The translations under genes and the position numbers were made by a program. The notes beneath the pieces were generated by a model that ran no database searches, was not told the origin of the DNA, and saw only the letters and a list, made by a program, of their open reading frames with translations. From Nitrososphaeria archaeon (GTDB taxonomy: Archaea > Thermoproteota > Nitrososphaeria > JACIWG01), in NCBI GenBank assembly GCA_050011875.1, contig JBEKIG010000006.1:43586-107585 (forward strand): a stretch of DNA of 64,000 nt, in the 5' to 3' direction. Positions 21,838-47,777 of this stretch are shown here, piece after piece (within the stretch, counting starts at the first letter, position 1; each line of letters begins with the position of its first letter).

Positions 21838-23850
21838 TTGTTGCAGACAAAGGAAAAGGAACTAAAAGCTGAAAGAAGATCTAATACTAGTATTCGCGAA
21901 ATTATCTTAGAGAACTTCATGTCATACGAATATGCACGTGTTCCGCTTATCAAGGGATTGAATATCATCTGTGGCCCTAACGGGTCAGGAAAATCCTCCA
22001 TATTATTGGGGATATCCGTTGCAATGGGCCAGATCTACACTGAGCGGTCGAGAAAGTTAAGCGACCTAATAAGGCGCGATAAGGATCTAGGAAGGGTTAC
22101 AATAGTCTTCGACAATAAGCCTGTTGACGGTAAAAGGCCTGTTCCATACTCTAGGTCTGACTCCTTTATGCTCTCCAGATATTTGAGGAAGGATGGGTCG
22201 TACTGGTTTGAAGCAGACTACAAAGAGGTGAGCTCCGCCGAAGTTAAGGAAATCCTGGCGGGTCTGAACATCAACCCAGACAACATGCTGCTAATAATGC
22301 ATCAGGGTATGGTTGAAGAATTTGCCATAGTCGACGCAGGGGACAAGTTAAGGATGGTCGAAGAAGTGGTTGGGTTAACGGGATACAGGGAGAAGGTTCT
22401 AGACTCCCAGAAAAGGCTTCAGACTTTGGTCAGCGAAGAGAGCTCAATAAAGCAGCTGATGGGAATGGCTGAAGAGACTTTAACTCATTGGAAGGACGTT
22501 TACGCGCGATTCCTAAAGAAACAGGAGCTTGTTACAAGGAGAGAAGCACTGACCAAAGAAAAGTTCTGGGTTCAAATGGCACGAGTGGAAAAAAGCATCG
22601 ACGTTACCTTGAACAGGCTGGATATCAAGAAAAGAGACGTGGGTGAACTCTCATCGAAGGTGAAAGGGTCGGAGGAAAGGTCAAAGAATCTAGAAACGGA
22701 TTTCCACACGTCATACAATCAGCTTAAGAAGTCCTTTAGCGCGTTGACTTTTCTCGGATCCGATAAAAGCTCTTCTGATGCAAGAAGAAAAGCACTTTCT
22801 GAGATCATCAAGTCCTTTGAAATGATATCGAGCACAGTTGAGAAATATCTTGTAAACAGCAGGACCGAAGCAAGCGATCTTAAGACGTTACAAAGGGATC
22901 TGACCTTGCTGGTTGATTCATGGAATAAAGAAGTGGAAATAGAGGCTCGAAAGGGCGTGGATACGTCTAATGAGATAGAAATGATCGAAAAATCCCTTTC
23001 TCAGAATGAAGAGGGGATGTTCAACCTAGTAAAGGAATACGCGGAAGAAAGTGCGAACCTCACACTTCTATCCTATAAAAGAAAGCAGTTAGAGACAGAG
23101 CTGGCTGAACTGGAACGAGGTCTTCGAGAACTTAAGGAGGAGTTGGCTGCCCTCGAACTTCAAAAACCATCGATGGAAGCAAGAGTGGCTCCAAATAGGC
23201 AGCTGAACGAAATCGACTCGGAACTTTCGTCGGTTAACGCGCAGATAGAAGTTTACGCTGATGTGCCGGATGAAGCGAAGAACATATTCGAAACCTATTC
23301 GTCTAAGTTCAACGAACTGAAGGGGAGGCTGGAACTGGTTCTTGAGAACAAGAAGGTCATCTTGGCAGAACTCGAGGAGAGGAAGAAGGTCTGGCGTGAA
23401 GGCATAAACATGGTTCTTGAGTCCGTGAACCCGGTATATCAGGAAATCCTAAGAGGGCTGAACGCCTTCGGATACATCAGGATCGTCTACGAAGAAGAGT
23501 TCGAAAGGACGGGGCTTGAGCTTCTCATAGGGTTCAGGGGGACAACGCCTGCCATTTTGGACGCGTATACCCTGAGCGGAGGAGAAAGAAGCACAGCTAC
23601 AATATCGTTCCTGCTGGCCCTTCAGAGGCTCTCCTCCTCACCTATCGTGGCCGTTGACGAATTCGATGTCCACATGGACCCCATCAACAGAGAGAGAATC
23701 TTCAGGTCGATATTCCAGAGGGCACAGGACGATGAAAAGCAGTACGTGATCATCACGCCGAGCCAAGTCAAGATCATGGGCGAAGACATAAACTACGTTG
23801 TTACCCAAACGATCGAAGGTAAGACGGAGGTCGGTGTAATTGCCAAATGA
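21838..23850 (+). CDS. Short SMC5/6-like ATPase with no recognisable hinge or zinc hook
   Basis: LENFMSY, Walker A GPNGSGKSS, Q-loop NINPDNMLLIMHQG, about 320 aa of coiled coil, signature LSGGERS, Walker B/D-loop VDEFDVHMD and QYVIITP. Confidence 0.9.
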   Translation: MLQTKEKELKAERRSNTSIREIILENFMSYEYARVPLIKGLNIICGPNGSGKSSILLGISVAMGQIYTERSRKLSDLIRRDKDLGRVTIVFDNKPVDGKRPVPYSRSDSFMLSRYLRKDGSYWFEADYKEVSSAEVKEILAGLNINPDNMLLIMHQGMVEEFAIVDAGDKLRMVEEVVGLTGYREKVLDSQKRLQTLVSEESSIKQLMGMAEETLTHWKDVYARFLKKQELVTRREALTKEKFWVQMARVEKSIDVTLNRLDIKKRDVGELSSKVKGSEERSKNLETDFHTSYNQLKKSFSALTFLGSDKSSSDARRKALSEIIKSFEMISSTVEKYLVNSRTEASDLKTLQRDLTLLVDSWNKEVEIEARKGVDTSNEIEMIEKSLSQNEEGMFNLVKEYAEESANLTLLSYKRKQLETELAELERGLRELKEELAALELQKPSMEARVAPNRQLNEIDSELSSVNAQIEVYADVPDEAKNIFETYSSKFNELKGRLELVLENKKVILAELEERKKVWREGINMVLESVNPVYQEILRGLNAFGYIRIVYEEEFERTGLELLIGFRGTTPAILDAYTLSGGERSTATISFLLALQRLSSSPIVAVDEFDVHMDPINRERIFRSIFQRAQDDEKQYVIITPSQVKIMGEDINYVVTQTIEGKTEVGVIAK

Positions 23851-24610
23851 TGAAAAGATAGAAAGGGTGCTGAGGGTTGTCGAAGCCCTGAGAACCGTCA
23901 TTGGAAGCAGCTCCGACCCGTTTAACGTCGACGTCAAAGCCCAAGTGGAGACCCTAAGGAAGCTTCTTCCGGAATGGAAGGAGCTCGGAGAAATCCTCAT
24001 GGACGTCGAAGCGTTGAACCTGCTGTCGAGGGTCGTTGAGCTTCAGGAAAAATGGGTCAGATACCAGGCGTCATCCCTCTATGTTGACCCACTGCTCGTC
24101 GAGTTGAAGATAGTTGCGTCAGCTCCGGAGAAGCTGGCCGAAGTATTCACGGGGAGCTGGCACCCGATACTCAAGGTGGAACAGGTCTCTACAAGAGAAC
24201 TGATGCGGGCCGTCGACTACTGGAATGTCCTCCTACCCTTGGGGGAGCGGTACAGGGAAGAATTTGGTCAAGAAAGGGGACTTGCCTCTCTGAATGCGAT
24301 GAGTCTGGTTGAGATGAAGGTCTTGACAGAAGAGGAACTCAACAGGAGGATAGAAGAGGTCTACGGGGAGCTGGTTTCTCTGCTCGAGACACAGGGAAAG
24401 GTTGACTACTGGAAGTTCATACGTGGAAAAGACCTGAACGAGACGGTCACAAGGGCCGTGATACTTTCTCATGTAATATCTTCTGGACGCGCAAGCCTAG
24501 AGATCAAGCCTCTGGAAGAGAACATTTTCATCGTAAAGCATAACGCTGACAAGTACCCCAAATCTATGGCGATAGCCATTTCACCGACAAGAGGTGTAAG
24601 GGAAGAATGA
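23840..24610 (+). CDS. Kleisin (ScpA/Nse4-like)
   Basis: N-terminal DPFNVDV plus helix resembles the ScpA DPWxIDI motif. The C-terminal winged helix is GKVDYWKFIRGKDLNETVTRAVILSHVISSGRASLEIKPLEENIFI. Overlaps the SMC stop by 11 nt. Confidence 0.72.
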   Translation: MPNDEKIERVLRVVEALRTVIGSSSDPFNVDVKAQVETLRKLLPEWKELGEILMDVEALNLLSRVVELQEKWVRYQASSLYVDPLLVELKIVASAPEKLAEVFTGSWHPILKVEQVSTRELMRAVDYWNVLLPLGERYREEFGQERGLASLNAMSLVEMKVLTEEELNRRIEEVYGELVSLLETQGKVDYWKFIRGKDLNETVTRAVILSHVISSGRASLEIKPLEENIFIVKHNADKYPKSMAIAISPTRGVREE

Positions 24611-25197
24611 GCGATGAAGCAGAAGTAGCGATAAAAACCAAGAAGGCGCTCCAGGTCATACTTACGCCGAAGGCCAGAGCCCCCGGTGTCAAGGGCTGGG
24701 AACTGAAAAGGACGGTTGGGAAAGACTACTACTCAATAATCCAAGTCCTCGGCACTGAGCTGGACAAACTCGGTCTTTTAATTATGGTGGTGGGAGAAAC
24801 CGGTGAACTGCCCCCTCAGGCCGAACCCGAACAGCTGGATGATGCGAGGTACTACATAGTATTCAAGGAACCTCTATCAACAAGGGAGGCCAGCCCTTCA
24901 GGGATGAGCGTCGACGATATGGCCGCGTTAGCGATCACCCTGAGCTATCTGACATCCAAACGAGGAAAGGCGCCTGCGAACGAAGTGGAGAGGATGCTGA
25001 AAGATAAGCTGCCAAAGTGGAAGGTTGAATGGAACATGAGAAGGTTCGTCAGAAAGGGGTACATTATACATAACGATGATGATACACTTTCGATAGGTTG
25101 GAGGAGCCTAGTGGAAGTGGACTTCAAGTCTCTTCTGACATTACTGCTCGCGACTCCACAGGGGGAACCGAAAGAGCAAGAAACAAGTGAATCTTAG
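24607..25197 (+). CDS. KITE tandem winged-helix subunit (ScpB/Nse1/Nse3-like)
   Basis: 196 aa with two WH-like halves. The C-terminal FVRKGYI...LSIGWRSLVEV resembles the Nse1/MAGE GPRAxxE motif. ATGA overlap with the kleisin. Confidence 0.68.
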   Translation: MSDEAEVAIKTKKALQVILTPKARAPGVKGWELKRTVGKDYYSIIQVLGTELDKLGLLIMVVGETGELPPQAEPEQLDDARYYIVFKEPLSTREASPSGMSVDDMAALAITLSYLTSKRGKAPANEVERMLKDKLPKWKVEWNMRRFVRKGYIIHNDDDTLSIGWRSLVEVDFKSLLTLLLATPQGEPKEQETSES

Positions 25198-37825: not shown

Positions 37826-40780
37826 TTGGATAGAAGTGAACTGATAAGAGGTTTTATACGTGACAATCTAGGCTTGTTGACTCTAAAGTCTTTCCCAGTC
37901 GAATTGTATAAGAAAGCAAAGCAAAAATATTTCATTGAAAGACATGGTAACTCTCAGCAAGGTGTACCCCGAGACTCAGAAATAGCTAGTGAGACCATTT
38001 GGTTCCTTATAAGGAGAAACCAAATACAATCACAGGATGAACTTGACAAAATTCTATCTGTTGGTCTAATGGCTGAGAAACTTAAAAATAAACAAACATT
38101 CTACGAATTTATCGAGTCAAGAAAGCCGTCTGAGCCTATTGTAGATTTTTCAAAGGTAAAACAAGCAGATTTCTTGGCTGGGATGCGTGAACAGATTAGG
38201 AAAGAACTTGAAAGCGAAATGAAAGTTTCCAATGTTTATAGAATAGAAGAACTAGATAAAGAAATCCAACGAAAAGTTGAAGAATATCAGTCTATTCCTT
38301 CGGTGATAGATGGTAAGGAATTCCCTGAACCTCCTCAACCCGTAATTGAGCTTGAAGCTCAGACATATATACCTTGGTGGAGGCAATTAAATCTAACCAA
38401 GGATCCATTCCCAGTAACAGAGGGATTGAGACGAATAGACCCTTCCTCATATGAAAGTGTAATAGTGAAAACACAAACCTTCCAGAAGTATTTGTCATAT
38501 TTAGACGAAGCTCCTGAAGAATTGTTTAAGAACACAATCTTTTTCGGTGAATTTGGGTCGGGTAAGACTACCCTTTTTGAATATTTAACGAAAGCTTTTT
38601 CATCCAAAGAGATATATTCTATATATGTACAGTTATATTCTGAGAAAGATCTCCAAAGTCTGAAGATTAAATTTAAGGAGAAAATGATTGAAGAACTTCA
38701 AGAAATTCTTAATGAACATGAAGGCGATGTATTAAGTATAGGAACAGCCAATATGGATATGACCTTAAGAACTCTTCTAAATAAGCTTGAGTCCAAATTG
38801 AATTCAAGAGGACTGATAATTTTCGTTGACGATCTACACAAGAATAAAGAAGATTATCCCGTATCTTTAGAATTCCTTAGTTATTTGCAAATATTTACAT
38901 CAGAGATAGTGAAAAAAACAGGTTTTCAAGATATTGCCTTCTACGTAGCAGGTGCCCTTCCATGGGAGCATGAAATAAGGACCCAACCAAGATATTCTGG
39001 TTCATTGGCTCGTCGTGAAACTATACCAGATATAACAGAAGAAGAGGCTTGGCAAATGCTTAATAAACGATTAGAGGCATTTTATCCCAACCCTGAAGTG
39101 AAGAGGACAGTAGACAGAAAATTTGTTGCTCAAGTTTATAAAGACTTGAAAATAAACAAATTTGAATTAACGTTCCGTGGTTTCATACGGCGTCTGGTAG
39201 ATGAATTCAAAATAGGTGACTTTCATGCTCTTACTAGTGACCCAGTTCATATACAACAAGATGTATTAGATCATATTAAAAAAGATCTCGAATCAAATAC
39301 AATACTTAAAGAAAGGTTCAATACCCTATTGCAGGAGAAAATTCAAGGAGTTGAACAAAGAGTTGCATCCCTTCGCCTTCTTGCTGATATATTCTTAAAA
39401 AAGTCGGTAAAAGACCAAGACTTAACTGAAAACAAATACTTCTGCTTGAAACAACTTAGTGACACTAGGCTTATCATCAAACAAAGAGAGAAGGAACATG
39501 ACTTTTCATGGATCATTTGTCCCGAGTTATCTGAGCGCGTTCGCTTCATTGCTTCCAATTATTCTCTATCACTCGAAGATTATATACTAAAAATATATGG
39601 TTTAACCCCAGGAAAACGTAAAGGTCTAAATGAAGAAATTCAACAAACAAAGACTTTTATCGATGAAAGTGTTGTGGAAGGTAAAGATATACTAGAAGGA
39701 GCATTAAAATTGCACAAAGAAATAATTGAAATTATGGAGAATTATAACCTAGAAATATCTGAAATCGAACTTGCAAGTAAGTGCAGACAATCATTAGAAC
39801 TGTTAACTAGATTTTATCTAACACAAGTTGAGCCAATCGATGAATCTAGCCCCTTTACTATTGGACTGGAATTCTGGAAGGATTACTGGTATTCTCCTAG
39901 AGAAATGGCACAATTCCAAAATGTGATATCTGACGAATATGAAATCAGACAGAGAATATGGCATGTTTGTAGTATTTATAGACAAGCTTACAGCTCAATT
40001 TTCGTGTTTATTACTAGAGAATATCAGTTCCTCACGTCTGTGCGTATACCTTCATTGCATCTAGATAATAGTGATATAAAACAGTTAGTCGAAGCGAGAG
40101 ACTGGTGGTCGAATCAGAATTACGAGCGATGCGTTCAGTGCCTATATGGTTCTATACAATCCAAGCTTAGAACATTTGTTCAGAACATTTTTACTTTAAT
40201 TTATGGTGATATAGATGACCGCTTTAATCATGTAGCAGAGCCTTTGCGTTCGCGAATAAGAGATAGTCTTCCTTCAAAACCTTCTTCGCTAATACAAGAA
40301 TTTTCCACTTTGACCTTAAAAGAAATTGGAGAGCTTATGACAGATGCCAATGCTAACAGAGAGATCAATAATTGGAACTGCCTTTTTTCAAAGCTTTTTC
40401 AACCTTTAACCAAAGATGAAATAACGGGATATATCAATAGATTATCGTCTCTGAAACTGCAATGTGACAACATGGAAGAGTTTGGCAAAGATATTTCTCT
40501 CGAATTGAGAGAACTACTGCTCTTCATGCGTGACCTTAGTTGCAAATCCAATATGGCATACGTCAATCTCTTACGTGAAGGTTTACAGATACGATTGAAT
40601 GTAACGAGTGCTATGCTATACATCACGCCAATTAACGAAATTGAAAAACTGAAAACAATTGGCCTGTCTTTTAGGCCGGAAGTGTTCCAAGCTCTTGATA
40701 CACACCTTTCATCTGGGACAATTAGTTTAAGTGATCAGAGTTATGCTAGAGAATATGAAGAAATCCCTGTACGACACTGA
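37826..40780 (+). CDS. Large P-loop (AAA+/STAND-like) NTPase with a degenerate Swt1/HEPN-like segment; N-terminal part of a probable ATPase-TIR fusion
   Basis: WWRQLNLTKDPF, Walker A GEFGSGKTT and Walker B LIIFVDDLH. It ends at a TGA, after which the same frame stays open into the TIR domain. Confidence 0.82.
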   Translation: MDRSELIRGFIRDNLGLLTLKSFPVELYKKAKQKYFIERHGNSQQGVPRDSEIASETIWFLIRRNQIQSQDELDKILSVGLMAEKLKNKQTFYEFIESRKPSEPIVDFSKVKQADFLAGMREQIRKELESEMKVSNVYRIEELDKEIQRKVEEYQSIPSVIDGKEFPEPPQPVIELEAQTYIPWWRQLNLTKDPFPVTEGLRRIDPSSYESVIVKTQTFQKYLSYLDEAPEELFKNTIFFGEFGSGKTTLFEYLTKAFSSKEIYSIYVQLYSEKDLQSLKIKFKEKMIEELQEILNEHEGDVLSIGTANMDMTLRTLLNKLESKLNSRGLIIFVDDLHKNKEDYPVSLEFLSYLQIFTSEIVKKTGFQDIAFYVAGALPWEHEIRTQPRYSGSLARRETIPDITEEEAWQMLNKRLEAFYPNPEVKRTVDRKFVAQVYKDLKINKFELTFRGFIRRLVDEFKIGDFHALTSDPVHIQQDVLDHIKKDLESNTILKERFNTLLQEKIQGVEQRVASLRLLADIFLKKSVKDQDLTENKYFCLKQLSDTRLIIKQREKEHDFSWIICPELSERVRFIASNYSLSLEDYILKIYGLTPGKRKGLNEEIQQTKTFIDESVVEGKDILEGALKLHKEIIEIMENYNLEISEIELASKCRQSLELLTRFYLTQVEPIDESSPFTIGLEFWKDYWYSPREMAQFQNVISDEYEIRQRIWHVCSIYRQAYSSIFVFITREYQFLTSVRIPSLHLDNSDIKQLVEARDWWSNQNYERCVQCLYGSIQSKLRTFVQNIFTLIYGDIDDRFNHVAEPLRSRIRDSLPSKPSSLIQEFSTLTLKEIGELMTDANANREINNWNCLFSKLFQPLTKDEITGYINRLSSLKLQCDNMEEFGKDISLELRELLLFMRDLSCKSNMAYVNLLREGLQIRLNVTSAMLYITPINEIEKLKTIGLSFRPEVFQALDTHLSSGTISLSDQSYAREYEEIPVRH

Positions 40781-40825
40781 ATAATATACTTAGCCTTAGC
40801 TACAAATGAAGGAAAGGCTTACATT

Positions 40826-41296
40826 TTGAATATCAAATCCAAATATACTATTGAAAAAGACAAGGGATCAACAATATCAATCAGGAGGGTGTTTAAATTT
40901 GCTGAAAAGCCTCCGAGGGTATTTATTTGTTATTCTAGCAAAGATAGGGATTTTGCCCAAAAGCTAGCAAAAGATCTGACAACGTATGGAATAATGGTGT
41001 GGTATGATGAATACGAGATAAAAGTCGGTGACTCGATTACAGAAAAGATTAGCAAAGCTCTTCAAGAATGTGATTATCTCTGTATTATATTGTCTCCAGA
41101 TTCCGTTAATTCAGAATGGGTTAAGAGAGAGCTGTCTGTAGCACTATTGGATGAGCTAGATCATAAGCGTGTTAAAGTCCTTCCAATCCTTTGGAAAGAC
41201 TGCCAAGTTCCCCCACTTATTCAGGATAAAAGACGAGCAAACTTCAGTCATATTTATGAAAAGGGACTTGAGGAACTGTTAGACCGTTTTTCCTAA
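40826..41296 (+). CDS. TIR domain protein (in frame with the upstream ATPase)
   Basis: VFICYSSKD, VWYDEYEIKVGDSI, LSPDSVNSEWVKREL with the catalytic Glu, and VLPIL. Confidence 0.9.
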   Translation: MNIKSKYTIEKDKGSTISIRRVFKFAEKPPRVFICYSSKDRDFAQKLAKDLTTYGIMVWYDEYEIKVGDSITEKISKALQECDYLCIILSPDSVNSEWVKRELSVALLDELDHKRVKVLPILWKDCQVPPLIQDKRRANFSHIYEKGLEELLDRFS

Positions 41297-41708: not shown

Positions 41709-43337
41709 ATGGCCATCATTCATTTCCATTCATTCATGACCAGAGTTCCCACAATATGGGTAGAAGTCTATAATAATCAGTGTCATCAATCTGGTAGTGG
41801 TATGCCAGTTCAGGAGAAACTCTTCAACGAAGATAAGATGACCAATAATAACATTGAGAAGCGATTGTGGGATATTGCAAACAATCTGAGGGCAAATTCC
41901 AAGCTGAGCTCTTCCGAGTACTCCACCCCTGTGCTTGGGCTTATTTTCCTGCGTCATGCTGCCTTCAAATTTACCAAGAAACAAAAGGAGCTAGAAAAAA
42001 ATGTACAAGGCTCAAGAAGGCAGGTAGGTAAGCTGGATTTTCAGGCAGAGGGCGTACTTTACCTTCCGGAAAAAGCCAGATACTCCTACTTACTCAACCT
42101 ACCAGAAGGTGATGATATCGGCAAGGCCATGGATACGGCGATGGATGCTATTGAAGATGAGAATCCTGATCTTAAAGGAACGCTTCCTAGAGGTTATTCC
42201 AAGTTCTCAAATGATTTGCTTGTCACGCTCTTGAGAGCGTTCTCACAGATAGCCGATGATATTGAGGGAGACGTTTTCGGAAGGATCTACGAGTACTTTC
42301 TTGGCGAGTTTGCGATGACTGAAGGCCAGAAGGGTGGCGAGTTCTACACACCAATATCACTGGTCAAACTGATTGTCGAAGTGATTGAACCATTCCACGG
42401 CAAGATTCTTGACCCAGCATGTGGTTCAGGCGGTATGTTTGTTCAAAGTGCACGTTTCGTTGAAGAGCGAAAAAGGAATCCAAGTGAGGAATTGTCCATC
42501 TATGGCCAAGAAAGAGTCACAGGCACAGTAAATCTGTGCAAGATGAACCTTGCAGTCCACGGATTATCAGGCGATATAAGAGAGGGCAACAGCTACTATG
42601 AAGACATTCACAAAAGCACCGGTAAATTCGACTATGTTATGGCCAATCCCCCATTCAACGTCAAGAAAGTTGACTACGAAAAAGTCAAAGGAGATCATCG
42701 CTGGCCTTTCGGGTTACCATCGACTGATAATGCCAACTATCTGTGGATTCAGCTATTCTATTCTGCTTTAAATGACAAAGGCAGAGCAGGATTTGTCATG
42801 GCAAATTCTGCGGCAGATGCAAGAGGTGCTGAGTTAGAAATAAGAAAGAAACTGATTCAGTCAGATGCCATAGACGTAATGATTTCGATAAGTCCAAACT
42901 TCTTTTACACTGTAACACTACCATGCACATTATGGTTCTTGGACAAGGACAAAGTTAACACAAAAAGGAAAGGAAATATTCTTTTCATAGATGCTCGCAG
43001 TATCTTCAATCAAGTCGACAGGGCTCATAGAGAATTTGTTCCAGAGCAAATTGACCAAATAGCAGGAATAGTTAGAAGTTATCGTGAAGAGAAAGGAGCA
43101 AAGTCGTATAAGGATGTTCAAGGACTTTGTAAGATTACAACTCTCAAAGAAATAGAGGAACAAGGTTGGTCTTTGAATCCTGGCAGATATATTGGGGTCT
43201 CTGAAAAAAAGGAAGAAGATTATGATTTCAATGAGAGGATTGAAGAGTTTGATGAAGAACTTGAAACACTTAACGAAGAAGCACATCAGCTTGAAAAACA
43301 AATATCGGAGAACGTGAACAAATTATTAGGGGATTAA
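41709..43337 (+). CDS. hsdM: Type I R-M system DNA methyltransferase subunit
   Basis: [32 protein letters not shown] (m6A motif IV) and LNPGRY. The true start is probably 41802 or 41838. Confidence 0.95.
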
Positions 43338-43338
43338 A

Positions 43339-44616
43339 GTGACATCACAAGAATATGAAGTCAAATTGGGTGACTGCATTGAAACTTTAAAAGGATTTGC
43401 ATTCAAAAGTCAATGGTATACAGATAAAGGCGTCCCTTTGATAAAAGTGAGTGATTTTTCCGATGATTCAATATCAACAGAAAACATAACCTTTATACCT
43501 GAACACATTGCCAAGGATTTTGACAGATATAGAATCCGAGAAAACGATATAATCATTCAAACAGTGGGCTCCTGGCCGAGAAACCCAAAATCTGTTGTTG
43601 GAAAAGCAATTCTGGTTCCAAGAAACTGCAATAATTCTCTACTCAATCAGAATGCTGTTAAAATCATTCCAAATCGGAACATTGATAACAATTTTCTTTT
43701 CTATTTATTGAGGTCGAAGCAATTTAAAGACTACATTATAAACACAGCGCAAGGAGCTGCAAATCAAGCAAGCATAACATTGGAATCGATTAAGAACTTT
43801 AAATTTGTTTTGCCTGATTTCGATTCACAGAAAAAAATTGGCGCACAAATACGAAATTATGACGACCTCATCAAGAACAATTCTCGTCGTATTCAACTTC
43901 TCGAACATATAGCAAAACTTATCTATGATGAATGGTTTGTCAGATTCAAATTTCCGGGACATGAAAATATCGGGATAGTTGAATCTGAATTAGGAGATAT
44001 CCCAAAGGGATGGAAGGTCTCCAAATTGAGTGAAGTAATAGATATCGACCCGAAAATGGCATTTCTAAAAAATTCAGAAAAAGTCTATGTTCCAATGAGT
44101 GCGTTATCCCCGAACTCAATGTTAATTGACGAGTTTGAATTTCGAAGAGGTAATGATGGTTCGAAATTCAAGAATGGGGATACTTTATTCGCTCGCATTA
44201 CTCCTAGTCTTGAACATGGTAAGACTGCCTTCGTTCAGTTCCTTGGCCCAGACGAAGTTGCGTTAGGCTCTACAGAGTTCATTGTTTTCAGATCGAGAAC
44301 TCTGAACCCATATTATGTTTACTTTATTGCACGTAACGAAAATTTGCGGCAGCACGCAATTAAGAGTATGACTGGGGCGTCTGGTCGACAGAGGGTTCAA
44401 TCGTCTTGTTTTGACAGTTTCTATTTCCCACGTCCCGAAGAAGATACATTAACAAAGTTCGCTTCAATAGTAGCACCGATGTTTCATGAAATCCAAGTCC
44501 TTTGTAGGAAGAATCAAATATTGCAACACATGCGGAATCTGCTTCTACCAAAGTTGATTTCTGGTGAGATTAATGTTTCAGAATTGGATATTAAGGTTCC
44601 TGAAGTGGAAGCATGA
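43339..44616 (+). CDS. hsdS: Type I R-M specificity subunit
   Basis: Two TRDs separated by QKKIG...DDLIKNNSRRIQLLE...IYDEWFVRFKFPG, and LLLPKLISGEI at the C-terminus. Confidence 0.93.
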   Translation: MTSQEYEVKLGDCIETLKGFAFKSQWYTDKGVPLIKVSDFSDDSISTENITFIPEHIAKDFDRYRIRENDIIIQTVGSWPRNPKSVVGKAILVPRNCNNSLLNQNAVKIIPNRNIDNNFLFYLLRSKQFKDYIINTAQGAANQASITLESIKNFKFVLPDFDSQKKIGAQIRNYDDLIKNNSRRIQLLEHIAKLIYDEWFVRFKFPGHENIGIVESELGDIPKGWKVSKLSEVIDIDPKMAFLKNSEKVYVPMSALSPNSMLIDEFEFRRGNDGSKFKNGDTLFARITPSLEHGKTAFVQFLGPDEVALGSTEFIVFRSRTLNPYYVYFIARNENLRQHAIKSMTGASGRQRVQSSCFDSFYFPRPEEDTLTKFASIVAPMFHEIQVLCRKNQILQHMRNLLLPKLISGEINVSELDIKVPEVEA

Positions 44617-47600
44617 CTGACTACTCGGAAGATGAATTGATCGAGCGTTCAGCAATAAAGGTCCTAACTCAGGATTTGCATTATGAGTATCTAAACAGCT
44701 ATGAAGAGAAGTTTCCTCAGACTCTTGGCAGGGAAACAAAGTCAGACGTTGTTCTTGTCAATAGACTATCCAAGGCCATCAACAAACTGAATGAGGGATT
44801 GTCAGAGGAAGCCAAGAAAGAAGCTATCTCAGAATTACTGCAAGATAGAAGCAGGCTTTCCTTGGTCAAGGCCAATCAAGAATTCTACCAAATCATCAAA
44901 GATGGTGTCAAGGTCAAGACTAAGAATAACAGGGGAGAATACGAATACCGTAACGTAAAAATTATCGACTTCAACAATCCTGAAGCCAATGACTTCTTCC
45001 TTGCTTCGCAATTCTGGGTTTGTGGCGAAATCTATACAAGAAGACCTGACTTGGTGTGCTTCGTAAATGGCGTACCTCTTGTTATGATAGAGTTGAAAGC
45101 AAGAAGTGTGGATGTCAAGAGGGCATTTGACGATAACATTACAGATTACAAGGATACGATCCCGCAGCTCTTCTGGTATAATGCATTTGTTATCATCTCA
45201 AACGGCAGAGATGCAAAGATAGGTAGCATCACAAGTGGATATGAACACTTCTCTGAATGGAAGAAGGTTGACGCAGAAAAGGAGGTCGGTATCGTATCAC
45301 TGGAAAGAGTCCTGAAGGGAACTTGCGACAAGAATAGACTCATAGACTTATTTGAGAATTTCATTCTCTTTACAACAATCGAAGGAAAACAGGTCAAGCT
45401 GATTGCAAAGAACCATCAATACCTCGGTGTCAACAATGCCATTGAGGTCTTCAAGAATAGGAAGATGAACAACGGCAGATTGGGCGTCTTCTGGCACACA
45501 CAGGGCTCAGGTAAAAGCTATTCCATGATATTCTTCTCACAGAAAGTGCTCAGAAAATTTGAGGGACACTACACTTTTGTCATTGTCACAGACCGTCAGG
45601 AGCTCGACCAGCAGATTTACCAGAACTTCCAAAACGCTGGCGTGGTTACTGAAGAAAAGGTTCAAGCCGAAAGCGGTGAACATCTGAAGAGACTTTTGAG
45701 AGAAGACCATAGACTCGTATTCACGTTGATTCACAAATTCAATACCGAGAAGGGAGAAACCTATCCCAAGCTGTCTGATAGAGACGACATCATTGTCATG
45801 ACGGATGAGGCTCACCGGACACAATACGATATTCTTGCTCTAAATATGAGGAATGCTTTGCCCAATGCCTCATTCATTGCATTCACAGGAACGCCACTCA
45901 TGAAAGAAGGTGAAGAAAAGACGAGGGCCACTTTCGGTGATTACGTTAGTATCTACAACTTCAGAGAAAGCGTCGAAGACCAAGCCACCGTTCCACTCTA
46001 CTATGAGAATAGAGTTCCTGAACTACAAATCATCAACCCAAACCTAAACGATGACATATACAACGTAATTGAAGAAGCGGACTTGGATACGGCTCAGGAA
46101 GAGAAGCTGGCCCGAGAGTTTGATAGAGAATACCACATTTTAACGAGAGAAGACCGCCTCAACACCATCGCTGAAGATATCGTTAATCATTTCATCAACA
46201 GAGGCTATGGAGGCAAGGCCATGGTGGTATCAATTGATAAAATCACCACTGTTAAAATGTACGATAAGGTCCAATACTATTGGCAGAAATATATCAATAC
46301 CCTCAAAGCAAAAGCAGACAAAGCAAAATATGAGGATGCAACGCCAATAAATGACAAGATCGCACAGCAGAAAAAGGTAGACATGGCAGTAGTCATCAGC
46401 CAAGAACAGAACGAAGTCAAGAAATTCAAAGAAAAAGGCCTTGACATCGCTAAACATAGAAAGCGAATGGTCAATGAAGACCTGGCAACCATCTTCAAAG
46501 ACCCCGACAGTCACTTCAAGATAGTCTTCGTCTGCAATATGTGGATGACAGGATTTGACGTTCCATGTCTTTCCACAATTTACCTGGATAAACCGATGAA
46601 GAACCACACGCTAATGCAGGCAATCGCAAGAGCGAATAGAGTCTTCAAAGAGAAACAGGCAGGCTTCATTGTTGATTATGCCAACATCTTCAAGAATCTA
46701 AAGAAAGCACTCGCAATCTATGCAGCACCAATCCCAGGCGGACAAGTAGACCTGCCAATCCAATCAAAAGACGAACTCGTGCAGGTCTTGAGAGACTACA
46801 TCAAAGAACTGAACAAGTTCTTAGGGGAACAAGGCATTAACCAAGTGAAGATTATCACTAGCAAGGGAATAGAAAAGAATGCCCTACTTGATGCAGCGTT
46901 ATCAGCTCTCGTCATCAATGACAACGTTAAGAACAACTTCCTACAGAAGACAGGAATCGCAATTAAAACATACAGTGCAATATTACCTCATAAAGACGCA
47001 TCAGAATTCAGCGCTGACATTACGCTCTACCTAGAACTTGTCAGAGAAATACGCTCACTCGACCCAGAAGTTGATATAAACGCAGTCATGCAAAACGTAG
47101 AGACTGTCCTCGACAAATCGATAGCCTCAAAAAGCTACGTAATCAGCGAGTCAACTAAAAAAACTATTGACCTTAGCAAGATTGACTTTGAGGCATTGAG
47201 GAAAAAGTTCGAGAAGAAAAAGAGCAACGCAGACGTTGAACGTCTCAAGAACATTATCACATTCAAATTGAAAGAGATGGTACGACTAAATAGCATAAGG
47301 ATTGATTATCAAACAAGATTCCAGCAGCTTATTGACGACTATAATTCAGGTTCGATGAATCAAGAGACATTCTTCGATGAACTGGTTAGGTTTAGCATCG
47401 GTTTGGACAAGGAAGAAAGAAGAACATTGGTGGAAGGTTTAACCGAAGAAGAACTTGTTCTCTTCGATAAACTGAATAAACCAAATCTTCCAGAGAAAGA
47501 CAAAAACCAAATCAAGAAAGTGGCAAAAGACTTGCTACATAGACTCCAACCTGTGAAACTCGTACTTGATTGGAGAAAGAAACAGCAGACAAGAGCATCA

Positions 47601-47777
47601 GTCAGACTTGAAATCGAAAAAGAACTCGATGTTGGTCTACCAAAGATTTACACGCAAGAAGATTACCAACAAAAGTGTCAAGAGGTTTTCCAACACTTCT
47701 ATGACAATTACTTTGGAGATGGCCTAAGTGTATTCAACACAGGCTTTGGAGTTAATTTCCAGAGGAGGCTTGGATAG
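44613..47777 (+). CDS. hsdR: Type I restriction endonuclease subunit R
   Basis: RPDLVCFVNGVPLVMIELK nuclease motif, HTQGSGKS, DEAHR, FTGTP, MWMTGFDVP and QAIARANR. ATGA overlap with hsdS. Confidence 0.95.
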   Translation: MTDYSEDELIERSAIKVLTQDLHYEYLNSYEEKFPQTLGRETKSDVVLVNRLSKAINKLNEGLSEEAKKEAISELLQDRSRLSLVKANQEFYQIIKDGVKVKTKNNRGEYEYRNVKIIDFNNPEANDFFLASQFWVCGEIYTRRPDLVCFVNGVPLVMIELKARSVDVKRAFDDNITDYKDTIPQLFWYNAFVIISNGRDAKIGSITSGYEHFSEWKKVDAEKEVGIVSLERVLKGTCDKNRLIDLFENFILFTTIEGKQVKLIAKNHQYLGVNNAIEVFKNRKMNNGRLGVFWHTQGSGKSYSMIFFSQKVLRKFEGHYTFVIVTDRQELDQQIYQNFQNAGVVTEEKVQAESGEHLKRLLREDHRLVFTLIHKFNTEKGETYPKLSDRDDIIVMTDEAHRTQYDILALNMRNALPNASFIAFTGTPLMKEGEEKTRATFGDYVSIYNFRESVEDQATVPLYYENRVPELQIINPNLNDDIYNVIEEADLDTAQEEKLAREFDREYHILTREDRLNTIAEDIVNHFINRGYGGKAMVVSIDKITTVKMYDKVQYYWQKYINTLKAKADKAKYEDATPINDKIAQQKKVDMAVVISQEQNEVKKFKEKGLDIAKHRKRMVNEDLATIFKDPDSHFKIVFVCNMWMTGFDVPCLSTIYLDKPMKNHTLMQAIARANRVFKEKQAGFIVDYANIFKNLKKALAIYAAPIPGGQVDLPIQSKDELVQVLRDYIKELNKFLGEQGINQVKIITSKGIEKNALLDAALSALVINDNVKNNFLQKTGIAIKTYSAILPHKDASEFSADITLYLELVREIRSLDPEVDINAVMQNVETVLDKSIASKSYVISESTKKTIDLSKIDFEALRKKFEKKKSNADVERLKNIITFKLKEMVRLNSIRIDYQTRFQQLIDDYNSGSMNQETFFDELVRFSIGLDKEERRTLVEGLTEEELVLFDKLNKPNLPEKDKNQIKKVAKDLLHRLQPVKLVLDWRKKQQTRASVRLEIEKELDVGLPKIYTQEDYQQKCQEVFQHFYDNYFGDGLSVFNTGFGVNFQRRLG

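Follow-up and report, generated by a model that had tools for sequence, protein, structure and literature searches.

The gating of a TIR effector by a nucleoside triphosphatase (NTPase) is a known design. Proteins of the Avs, bNACHT and TIR-NLR types combine, in one large chain, a P-loop NTPase that has a lid and a winged helix with an effector that kills the cell, for instance a TIR domain, and the Avs and NLR-like proteins are believed to act by oligomerisation. Here an ATPase-TIR gene of this general layout is described from a Nitrososphaeria archaeon (contig JBEKIG010000006.1, positions 43,586 to 107,585 of the forward strand). The whole stretch of 64,000 nucleotides that was analysed is referred to as the window, and positions are those of the window unless another contig or locus is named. 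The gene (37826-41296, + strand) is interrupted by a single in-frame TGA and, on balance and with confidence a little above even, we regard this copy as a recently inactivated NTPase-gated TIR defence gene.

Like the Avs and NLR-like proteins, the window protein has an ATPase that matched the structures of CED-4, Apaf-1 and plant NLRs at probability 1.0. It differs from them in several respects. According to a 2026 survey, the STAND families associated with defence number at least 90, and a STAND typically has its effector at the N-terminus and its sensor at the C-terminus (PMC13581612), whereas the TIR effector of the window protein is C-terminal. The family described here may overlap with one of those families. 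No TPR, LRR or WD40 repeat array was found in the window protein by Pfam, and none was visible in the structural model of residues 601-1156. PADLOC gave no Avs, bNACHT or TIR-NLR match outside the TIR domain, and the nearest solved ATPase structures were those of ORC/Cdc6 proteins. The protein would work in the manner of the NLR/Avs type, as an NTPase switch with a death effector, and is set apart by its domain order, the missing repeat sensors and the lack of a PADLOC match.

Anantharaman et al. 2013 described fusions of Swt1/Abi2-type HEPN domains with AAA+ or STAND ATPases that are linked to restriction-modification (R-M) operons (Ava_2192 type; PMC3710099), and noted that the Rx4-6H motif has been lost in some versions, which are thereby inactive. 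The present family would share with those fusions the combination of a putative Swt1-like HEPN with an AAA+/STAND ATPase, the R-M linkage and the occurrence of inactive HEPN versions. In the passages of that paper on the Ava_2192 type, the fusions either use an ATPase of the DUF499 type or place the HEPN domain N-terminal to a STAND with TPR/S1, and no comparable addition of a TIR domain appears (PMC3710099). In the family of the window protein, by contrast, the HEPN-like domain follows an ATPase of the ATPase_2/AAA_22 type, and in the short members the His is retained without the canonical Arg.

The TIR domain alone resembles NAD+ hydrolases of the AbTir, BtTir and PdTIR type, to which it was 29-32 % identical, with the Glu of W-x-x-x-E-L aligned. 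Those chains, however, are 134-184 residues long and have no ATPase, whereas the TIR domain of the window protein forms the last 126 of 1156 residues. Its reaction might result in either NAD+ depletion or a cyclic ADP-ribose signal. The best PADLOC and NCBIfam matches of the TIR piece, to PDC-S66 (1.8e-24), ThsB (6e-13) and Retron_TIR (2e-22, far below its cut-off), concerned the TIR domain only. In contrast to PDC-S66, Thoeris ThsB and reverse transcriptase-TIR systems, the window gene includes neither ThsA nor a reverse transcriptase nor the N-terminal part of PDC-S66. Pfam named no SIR2, Macro or SLOG family on the open reading frames (ORFs) between 28.5 and 59.6 kb, and no genome-wide search for ThsA was made.

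No PADLOC 2.0.0 model covered the ATPase-HEPN core, the ATPase of the window protein giving only LeoBC (6e-4) and mad8 (6e-3) over the P-loop, and none of 10 relatives gave a core match in PADLOC. An NCBIfam model for the core was likewise not found, and a literature search returned no title or abstract describing this ATPase-HEPN-TIR architecture. The original prediction, made from the sequence of the window, had proposed an undescribed NTPase-gated TIR protein and suggested a PADLOC run as a check. The lack of a PADLOC or NCBIfam model for the core agrees with it, but the protein is not unique (about 280 clusters), its design is known, and one relative in a public metagenome-assembled genome (MAG) is already labelled 'toll/interleukin-1 receptor domain-containing protein'.

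Gene layout and the in-frame TGA

The upstream ORF (37826-40780, + strand) starts at a TTG, encodes 984 residues and ends at a TGA (40778-40780, codon 985), which was the sole interruption of the ATPase-TIR gene. Past this stop the frame remained open for 171 further codons, up to a TAA at 41294-41296, and the read-through product comprises 1156 residues, as had been predicted for two ORFs sharing one frame. The TTG at 37826 aligned with the Met of MDRxEL in homologues, indicating that the gene itself uses TTG as a start. The first ATG, GTG or TTG after the stop was the TTG at 40826-40828 (+ strand, codon 1001), taken by gene callers as the start of a TIR protein of 156 residues; it is preceded, 8 nucleotides ahead, by the purine-rich stretch aggaaagg. 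A start at this TTG would omit residues 986-1000 (IIYLALATNEGKAYI), including the conserved xAYLAL motif.

Neighbouring frames in register were not rare, 12 of the 275 TGA-ended frames of at least 300 codons in the genome being followed by at least 150 open codons. The two ORFs are more than a chance pair because of homology, the read-through product aligning with single-chain homologues across the stop. With an X at the stop position it aligned end to end with twelve homologues at 35-55 % identity and without a gap at the stop, and single proteins of 1150-1172 residues were 44-55 % identical to it from end to end. A homologue search of 5.8 billion proteins yielded 61 matches including the window's own, and 17 of the 60 non-self matches carried a TIR domain in one chain of 1150-1339 residues. 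Since the fused homologues align straight through the stop, the locus is one gene, cut once; both this claim of the original prediction and the fusion of relatives to TIR, which it had put up for checking, were borne out.

Among 26 homologues, the column of the stop held Phe in 18, Val in three, Ala in two, and Cys, Ser and Ile in one each, and in none of them a stop codon. The ancestral residue was probably hydrophobic, because of the residues found at this column. The originally proposed change of TGG to TGA received no particular support, because Trp was never seen there. Intermediates encoding Cys (TGY), Ser (TCA) or Leu (TTA) are each one change away from TGA. A local frameshift was considered as the origin of the odd PVRH-stop context and rejected, as the other two frames at about 40760-40800 gave no match to the PYREF consensus (bases read by eye).

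The genome is a 2.64-Mb draft of 119 contigs, 97 % complete with an estimated contamination of 4.8 %. It is archaeal, since it codes for ribosomal protein S19e, which among the control genomes gave a signal in the four archaea only. Identical products of 984 residues (one called as 958 residues) and 156 residues were found on three contigs of 107,585, 95,247 and 309,168 bases from different sources, which makes an assembly slip unlikely. The three copies are identical in protein sequence and thus hold no evidence on the age or the long-term maintenance of the split. Elsewhere in the genome, outside the window, a similar arrangement was observed on contig C17 (C17:12645-20337, + strand), where a frame of 1942 codons, a single TGA and a frame of 620 codons follow one another in register; this may be a second giant gene with an interruption, or simply a pair of genes that share a frame.

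Domain architecture and candidate catalytic residues

The protein was modelled with AlphaFold in two parts, from 72 and 68 homologues, respectively. Residues 1-600 reached a predicted local distance difference test score (pLDDT) of 89, and residues 601-1156 a pLDDT of 91.5 with a predicted template-modelling score (pTM) of 0.88. The N-terminal helical region, the P-loop NTPase and the helical/winged-helix region that had been predicted were all recovered by Pfam and the models together. Residues 1-100 (37826-38125, + strand) form a conserved, all-helical domain (model m94b41a5415f0, pLDDT 88-96) with many invariant columns in the alignment with homologues and no Pfam match; it is possibly a sensor or adaptor. 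A single long helix, residues 110-156 (38153-38293, + strand; DSSP on the model, pLDDT 55-85), leads from it to the ATPase.

The AAA+ or STAND-like P-loop ATPase with its lid covers residues of about 184-475 (38375-39250, + strand) and was identified by Pfam (ATPase_2 4.6e-9, AAA_22 3.7e-7 and AAA_16), by the model and by Foldseek. The lead-in motif WWxQLxLxxDPFP precedes the Walker A motif GEFGSGKT (residues 241-248, 38546-38569, + strand), which is followed by the Walker B motif FVDD (residues 333-336, 38822-38833, + strand). G241, G246, K247 and D335 were invariant across 72 sequences. The best Foldseek matches of this half of the protein were ORC2 (1w5t, E 4.6e-9) and Cdc6/Orc1 (2qby, 1fnn), the top group ranging from E 5e-9 to 1e-7. 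CED-4 (4m9s), Apaf-1 (1z6t), NRC2 (8xuq) and the ATPase_2 protein PAB2304 (2qen) followed at about 1e-6, all of them at probability 1.0, and the STAND structures ranked behind ORC2/Cdc6 at E of about 8e-7. By these matches the ATPase appears no more distant from ORC/Cdc6 proteins than from STANDs. No NB-ARC or NACHT match was obtained with Pfam in the window protein; some relatives gave sub-threshold NB-ARC, NACHT and nSTAND matches, and NPHP3_N was above its cut-off in P0053.

After the ATPase follows a helical and winged-helix region, residues 478-591 (39257-39598, + strand; pLDDT about 90-96). In the model it consists of helices at 478-546, a hairpin at 550-564 and helices at 566-591, and it lies within the ORC/Cdc6 and STAND alignments. 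A large helical domain, residues 601-918 (39626-40579, + strand), is helical up to residue 318 of model m5bb763af96ac, with pLDDT above 90. The stop lies in the next domain, a small alpha/beta, winged-helix-like domain of residues 920-1022 (40583-40891, + strand), which has, in model numbering, strands at 320-333, helices at 351-400 and a hairpin at 406-422. Codon 985 corresponds to model residue 385, in a loop between two helices of this confidently folded domain (block pLDDT 77-96), and residues 986-1000 form two of its helices.

The TIR domain, residues 1031-1156 followed by the TAA (40916-41296, + strand), was matched by Pfam TIR_2 at 1e-29. Its TIR_2 (PF13676) score of 104 bits stood against a cut-off of 28, and its TIR (PF01582) score of 49.5 against 21.3. 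This part of the model, with pLDDT mostly 85-95, has the flavodoxin-like TIR fold. VIA-align gave Z scores of 13.2 to 5y8f (root-mean-square deviation 2.7, 124 aligned), 12.2 to the SARM1 TIR domain 9hq0 and 10.8 to AbTir 8g83; identity to AbTir was 29-32 % (32 % to 8g83), with E 7.5e-16 for 7uwg. The candidate catalytic residue is E1102 in WVKREL (GAG, 41129-41131, + strand), which, in the alignments with AbTir and BtTir, falls on the Glu of their YEL; in AbTir this Glu is the catalytic residue. The predicted C-terminal TIR domain with an intact WVxxE was thereby found as described. By analogy with these enzymes, the domain would act as an NADase in the intact protein.

The large helical domain had been predicted to hold a Swt1/HEPN-like segment without RxxxxH. 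This claim found support at the level of the family, and the motif His is indeed absent, but the window protein itself gave no HEPN match in Pfam. A putative degenerate Swt1-like HEPN core was placed by hhalign, at the family level, at residues of about 772-882 (40139-40471, + strand). PF18731 (HEPN_Swt1) was seen at the same region in two of 47 short relatives (E<=1), below its cut-off (17-18 bits vs 27.5). A genuine HEPN_Swt1 protein, scoring 42 bits on PF18731 and encoded by another member of the same class, was compared with the family profile by hhalign; the probability was 90.8 % with E 1.2e-6 over 107 columns, and the conserved His of the family aligned with the His of R-N-A-I-S-H in that protein. 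A language-model look-up also pointed to HEPN, as a lead only. Fold searches of the model of residues 601-1156 returned essentially only TIR and flavodoxin-like matches, with whole-chain SARM1 rows at template-modelling scores of 0.17-0.21. At residues of about 832 and 885 (nucleotides of about 40319-40480) the window protein has L and N where short forms have R and H, and at the position of the HEPN His it has a gap (LKLQCDN--). The His of the Rx4-6H motif was absent from the window protein and from all 24 extended members. In the short members the His is kept; the Arg five residues ahead is not conserved, and another Arg (LNR) is. These alignments support, at the family level, a tentative assignment of the helical domain as a Swt1-like HEPN, of which the copy in the window appears to be degenerate.

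Family, effectors and genomic neighbours

Of 1.84 billion representative proteins searched, 282 clusters belonged to the family at E<=1e-3, and 153 still did so at the stricter E<=1e-30. No member was found in the genomes of 60 relatives, one of which had weak TIR-only matches (E 4e-4), and none among 400 other genomes of the phylum. Among the matches listed, the source names were Nitrososphaerales, Thaumarchaeota, Nitrososphaerota and Thorarchaeota MAGs. The family is thus a rare, patchy and uncharacterised archaeal one. Most members have about 1030-1080 residues and end just past the winged-helix-like domain. One member of the TIR clade, P0005 (1057 residues), has a TIR domain that ends about 25 residues in; this may be a further allele in decay or an artefact of the assembly.

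A tree of the ATPase core was built from 122 full-length rows, in which members were called extended if they had a C-terminal addition of at least 90 residues. The Arg (L-N-R) and the HEPN His (S-H-x-K) were both kept in 92 of the 98 short members, and the pair was present in none of the 24 with an extension. On the tree the extension label required four changes: it was gained in the main clade, in P0035 and in P0091, and lost in P0005. A test for co-evolution of the extension with loss of the Arg and His gave four independent pairs and a sign test p of 0.5 and was set aside; with so few independent events, the count of 0/24 is a description and not a statistical result. Because the pair is kept in short members and lost in extended ones, the HEPN-like domain may have been the original effector, replaced at least three times.

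The C-terminal effectors found in the family were none, TIR, TIR with Schlafen/AlbA_2, TIR with a second TIR-like/Nuc_deoxyrib_tr domain, and AlbA_2-like alone. Glu was kept at the catalytic column in all 13 members with a terminal TIR domain, the window protein included. Asp stood there in six (P0004, P0006, P0010, P0011, P0016 and P0017) of the seven TIR members with a further domain of at least 144 residues, this further domain being Schlafen/AlbA_2 or a second TIR-like domain. We infer from this pattern that the HEPN-like domain was superseded by TIR in the clade of the window protein, and that TIR was superseded in turn in a sub-branch.

A complete type I R-M operon (41709-47777) directly follows the ATPase-TIR gene, in agreement with the predicted position directly upstream of such a system. 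It consists of hsdM (41709-43337, + strand; Pfam N6_Mtase 4.7e-90), hsdS (43339-44616, + strand; Methylase_S 4.5e-21) and hsdR (44613-47777, + strand; HSDR_N 1.4e-48 and SWI2_SNF2 3.2e-74). On the other side lie metabolic genes (PhzF-like, flavin reductase). The guanine-plus-cytosine (GC) content was 0.35-0.37 at 36-42 kb, a stretch with the PhzF-like and ATPase-TIR genes and the beginning of the R-M operon, vs about 0.40-0.47 around. Searches of the window turned up neither integrase nor tRNA genes. At least three genome loci and at least four metagenome loci of homologues were recovered, and neighbours were examined at four loci. At L010 a short-form member lies between an HsdR C-terminal fragment and a weak match to a pPIWI-associated nuclease (L010:1096-2094, - strand, and L010:18-1010, + strand), and at L004 AbiTii is nearby. 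Defence-type neighbours were thus present in the window and at two of the four homologue loci. Elsewhere in the window, a 670-residue SMC/Rad50-like ATPase stands ahead of two ORFs that overlap each other, 23840-24610 and 24607-25197 (21838-25197 in all, + strand); this ATPase gave sub-threshold matches to SMC, an archaea-specific SMC-related protein, a TrlF-family ATPase and arcadin-4.

State of the copy in the window

With the intact protein, a trigger from an invading virus or plasmid would be sensed, and the ATPase would gather the TIR domains by nucleotide-dependent oligomerisation. The TIR active site would then form, NAD+ would be destroyed and the infected cell would be stopped, as in abortive infection. 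The subclade of the window gene would have gained a TIR domain of the AbTir type, catalytic Glu included, at the C-terminus, and from its HEPN domain the conserved Arg and His would have disappeared. What speaks for defence at the level of the family is its rarity and patchiness, the low GC content, the R-M/Abi neighbours and the swapping of C-terminal effectors. The nonsense TGA in the winged-helix-like domain would uncouple the TIR domain from the ATPase, and the copy is thus most likely recently inactivated; a nonsense mutation that arose recently in a gene otherwise fit to function is the simplest account of the evidence taken as a whole. The 984-residue product would lack half of the winged-helix-like domain and the only intact effector. 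The 15 codons between the TGA and the TTG at 40826 still encode the conserved motif, which argues that their translation stopped only a short time ago or even continues.

Signs of decay beyond the TGA were scarce. No second lesion was found in the gene. On a fixed tree of 12 TIR-clade proteins, the share of the window branch in the tree length was 0.062 for the N-terminus, 0.074 for the ATPase, 0.079 for the helical domain, 0.064 for the TIR domain and 0.136 for the junction domain (residues 920-1030). Relaxed selection after the stop was not seen, the share of the TIR domain lying within the range of 0.062-0.079 found elsewhere, the junction domain aside. The window protein deviated at four of 46 conserved columns in the TIR domain and at 18 of 191 in the ATPase, both of which are as conserved as in intact relatives. 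When the 171-residue piece after the stop was used as a query, 69 short TIR proteins were matched. The linker was covered only by the window's own 156-residue piece (91 %), and the others covered 42-78 % of the query, hardly more than the TIR domain itself. Among these 69 proteins there was thus no further split allele.

Several observations weigh against a recently inactivated defence gene. The defence role would rest on context and architecture, and of the four homologue loci L009 (with DUF2130) and L008 (with only housekeeping neighbours) had no clear defence neighbours. No member was found in a scan of viral contigs. The nearest solved structures of the ATPase are replication initiators (ORC/Cdc6) and not immune STANDs. 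The split allele, on three contigs, persists in the sampled population, and both of its pieces are annotated by gene callers. Both halves are intact and a purine-rich stretch precedes the TTG at 40826, which would also fit a working two-piece form. Finally, the junction deviated at eight of 19 conserved columns, all before the stop, vs 28 of 349 in the rest of the protein (p 1.3e-4), which might point to remodelling of the junction. The same excess was shown by the intact proteins P0012 (8/21) and P0018 (12/22), so that the junction divergence is no evidence for an old, adapted split and was dropped as a sign of one.

The stop might alternatively separate a working two-piece system, in which the 984-residue ATPase-HEPN piece and the 156-residue TIR protein, made from the TTG at 40826 by re-initiation or from its own promoter, assemble non-covalently and act like the fused protein. 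To this we give a limited but appreciable chance. The intact ORFs with all conserved TIR residues, the use of TTG by the gene itself, the aggaaagg ahead of the second TTG, the three contigs and the excess divergence of the junction segment (residues 920-984) would agree with it. The cut, however, lies within a folded domain and not in a linker, and a TTG start drops 15 residues, corresponding to two helices, though their codons stay conserved; for these reasons the real split that the original prediction had listed among its options appears weak. The linker was in none of the 69 short TIR proteins besides the window's own, and the other members of the TIR clade are all single chains except P0005 with its truncated TIR domain. 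Identity of the three copies gives no sign of long-term maintenance, and the junction divergence recurs in intact relatives. A related view, to which we assign a rather small likelihood, is that the family is an immune sensor with serial effector replacement, from a Swt1-like HEPN to a dead HEPN with TIR and on to a TIR with Asp plus Schlafen/AlbA_2 or a second TIR-like domain; the stop would then mark a natural two-piece form, whose free TIR domain is held or released by the effector-less ATPase. Leaky or regulated read-through of the TGA, by which little full-length protein would be made and a toxic effector kept at low dose, would account for the frame and the conserved motif continuing directly past the stop and for the absence of extra divergence in the TIR domain, but a merely recent nonsense mutation predicts the same pattern. 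TGA is an ordinary stop in this genome, ending 275 of 983 long frames with downstream open lengths resembling those after TAA and TAG. ARAGORN found no tRNA-Sec and no suppressor or TCA-anticodon tRNA in the genome, and no Rfam element was matched in the window; TGA recoding or selenocysteine insertion was rejected on these results. As no homologue has a stop at this column either, read-through is considered improbable.

A sequencing or assembly error, with a sense codon in the real genome, would agree with the draft state and estimated contamination of the genome and with a difference decided by a single base. It is considered highly improbable in view of the identical products on three contigs from different sources, provided that these derive from independent reads. 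It is also improbable, about as much as read-through, that the protein is not immune at all but an ORC/Cdc6-like AAA+ regulator of DNA or RNA with a housekeeping or mobile-element function, in which the TIR domain has another role. ORC2, Cdc6 and Orc1 as the best structural matches, the two loci without defence neighbours and the lack of a PADLOC match would favour such a regulator. The extreme patchiness, the effector swapping and the R-M/Abi neighbours, on the other hand, are unexpected for housekeeping genes, and the STANDs CED-4, Apaf-1 and plant NLRs matched at probability 1.0 as well.

Apart from CRISPR and R-M, the innate immunity of archaea is poorly known. If the reading as an NTPase-gated TIR defence gene is true, the family would represent a TIR-based, NTPase-gated archaeal system whose domains follow one another in the reverse order to those of Avs and NLR proteins. 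It would also provide a natural series of effector swaps on one sensor scaffold, useful for asking what is sensed by this scaffold and by what coupling it drives different effectors, while the cut copy in the window would mainly show how quickly such costly genes are lost.

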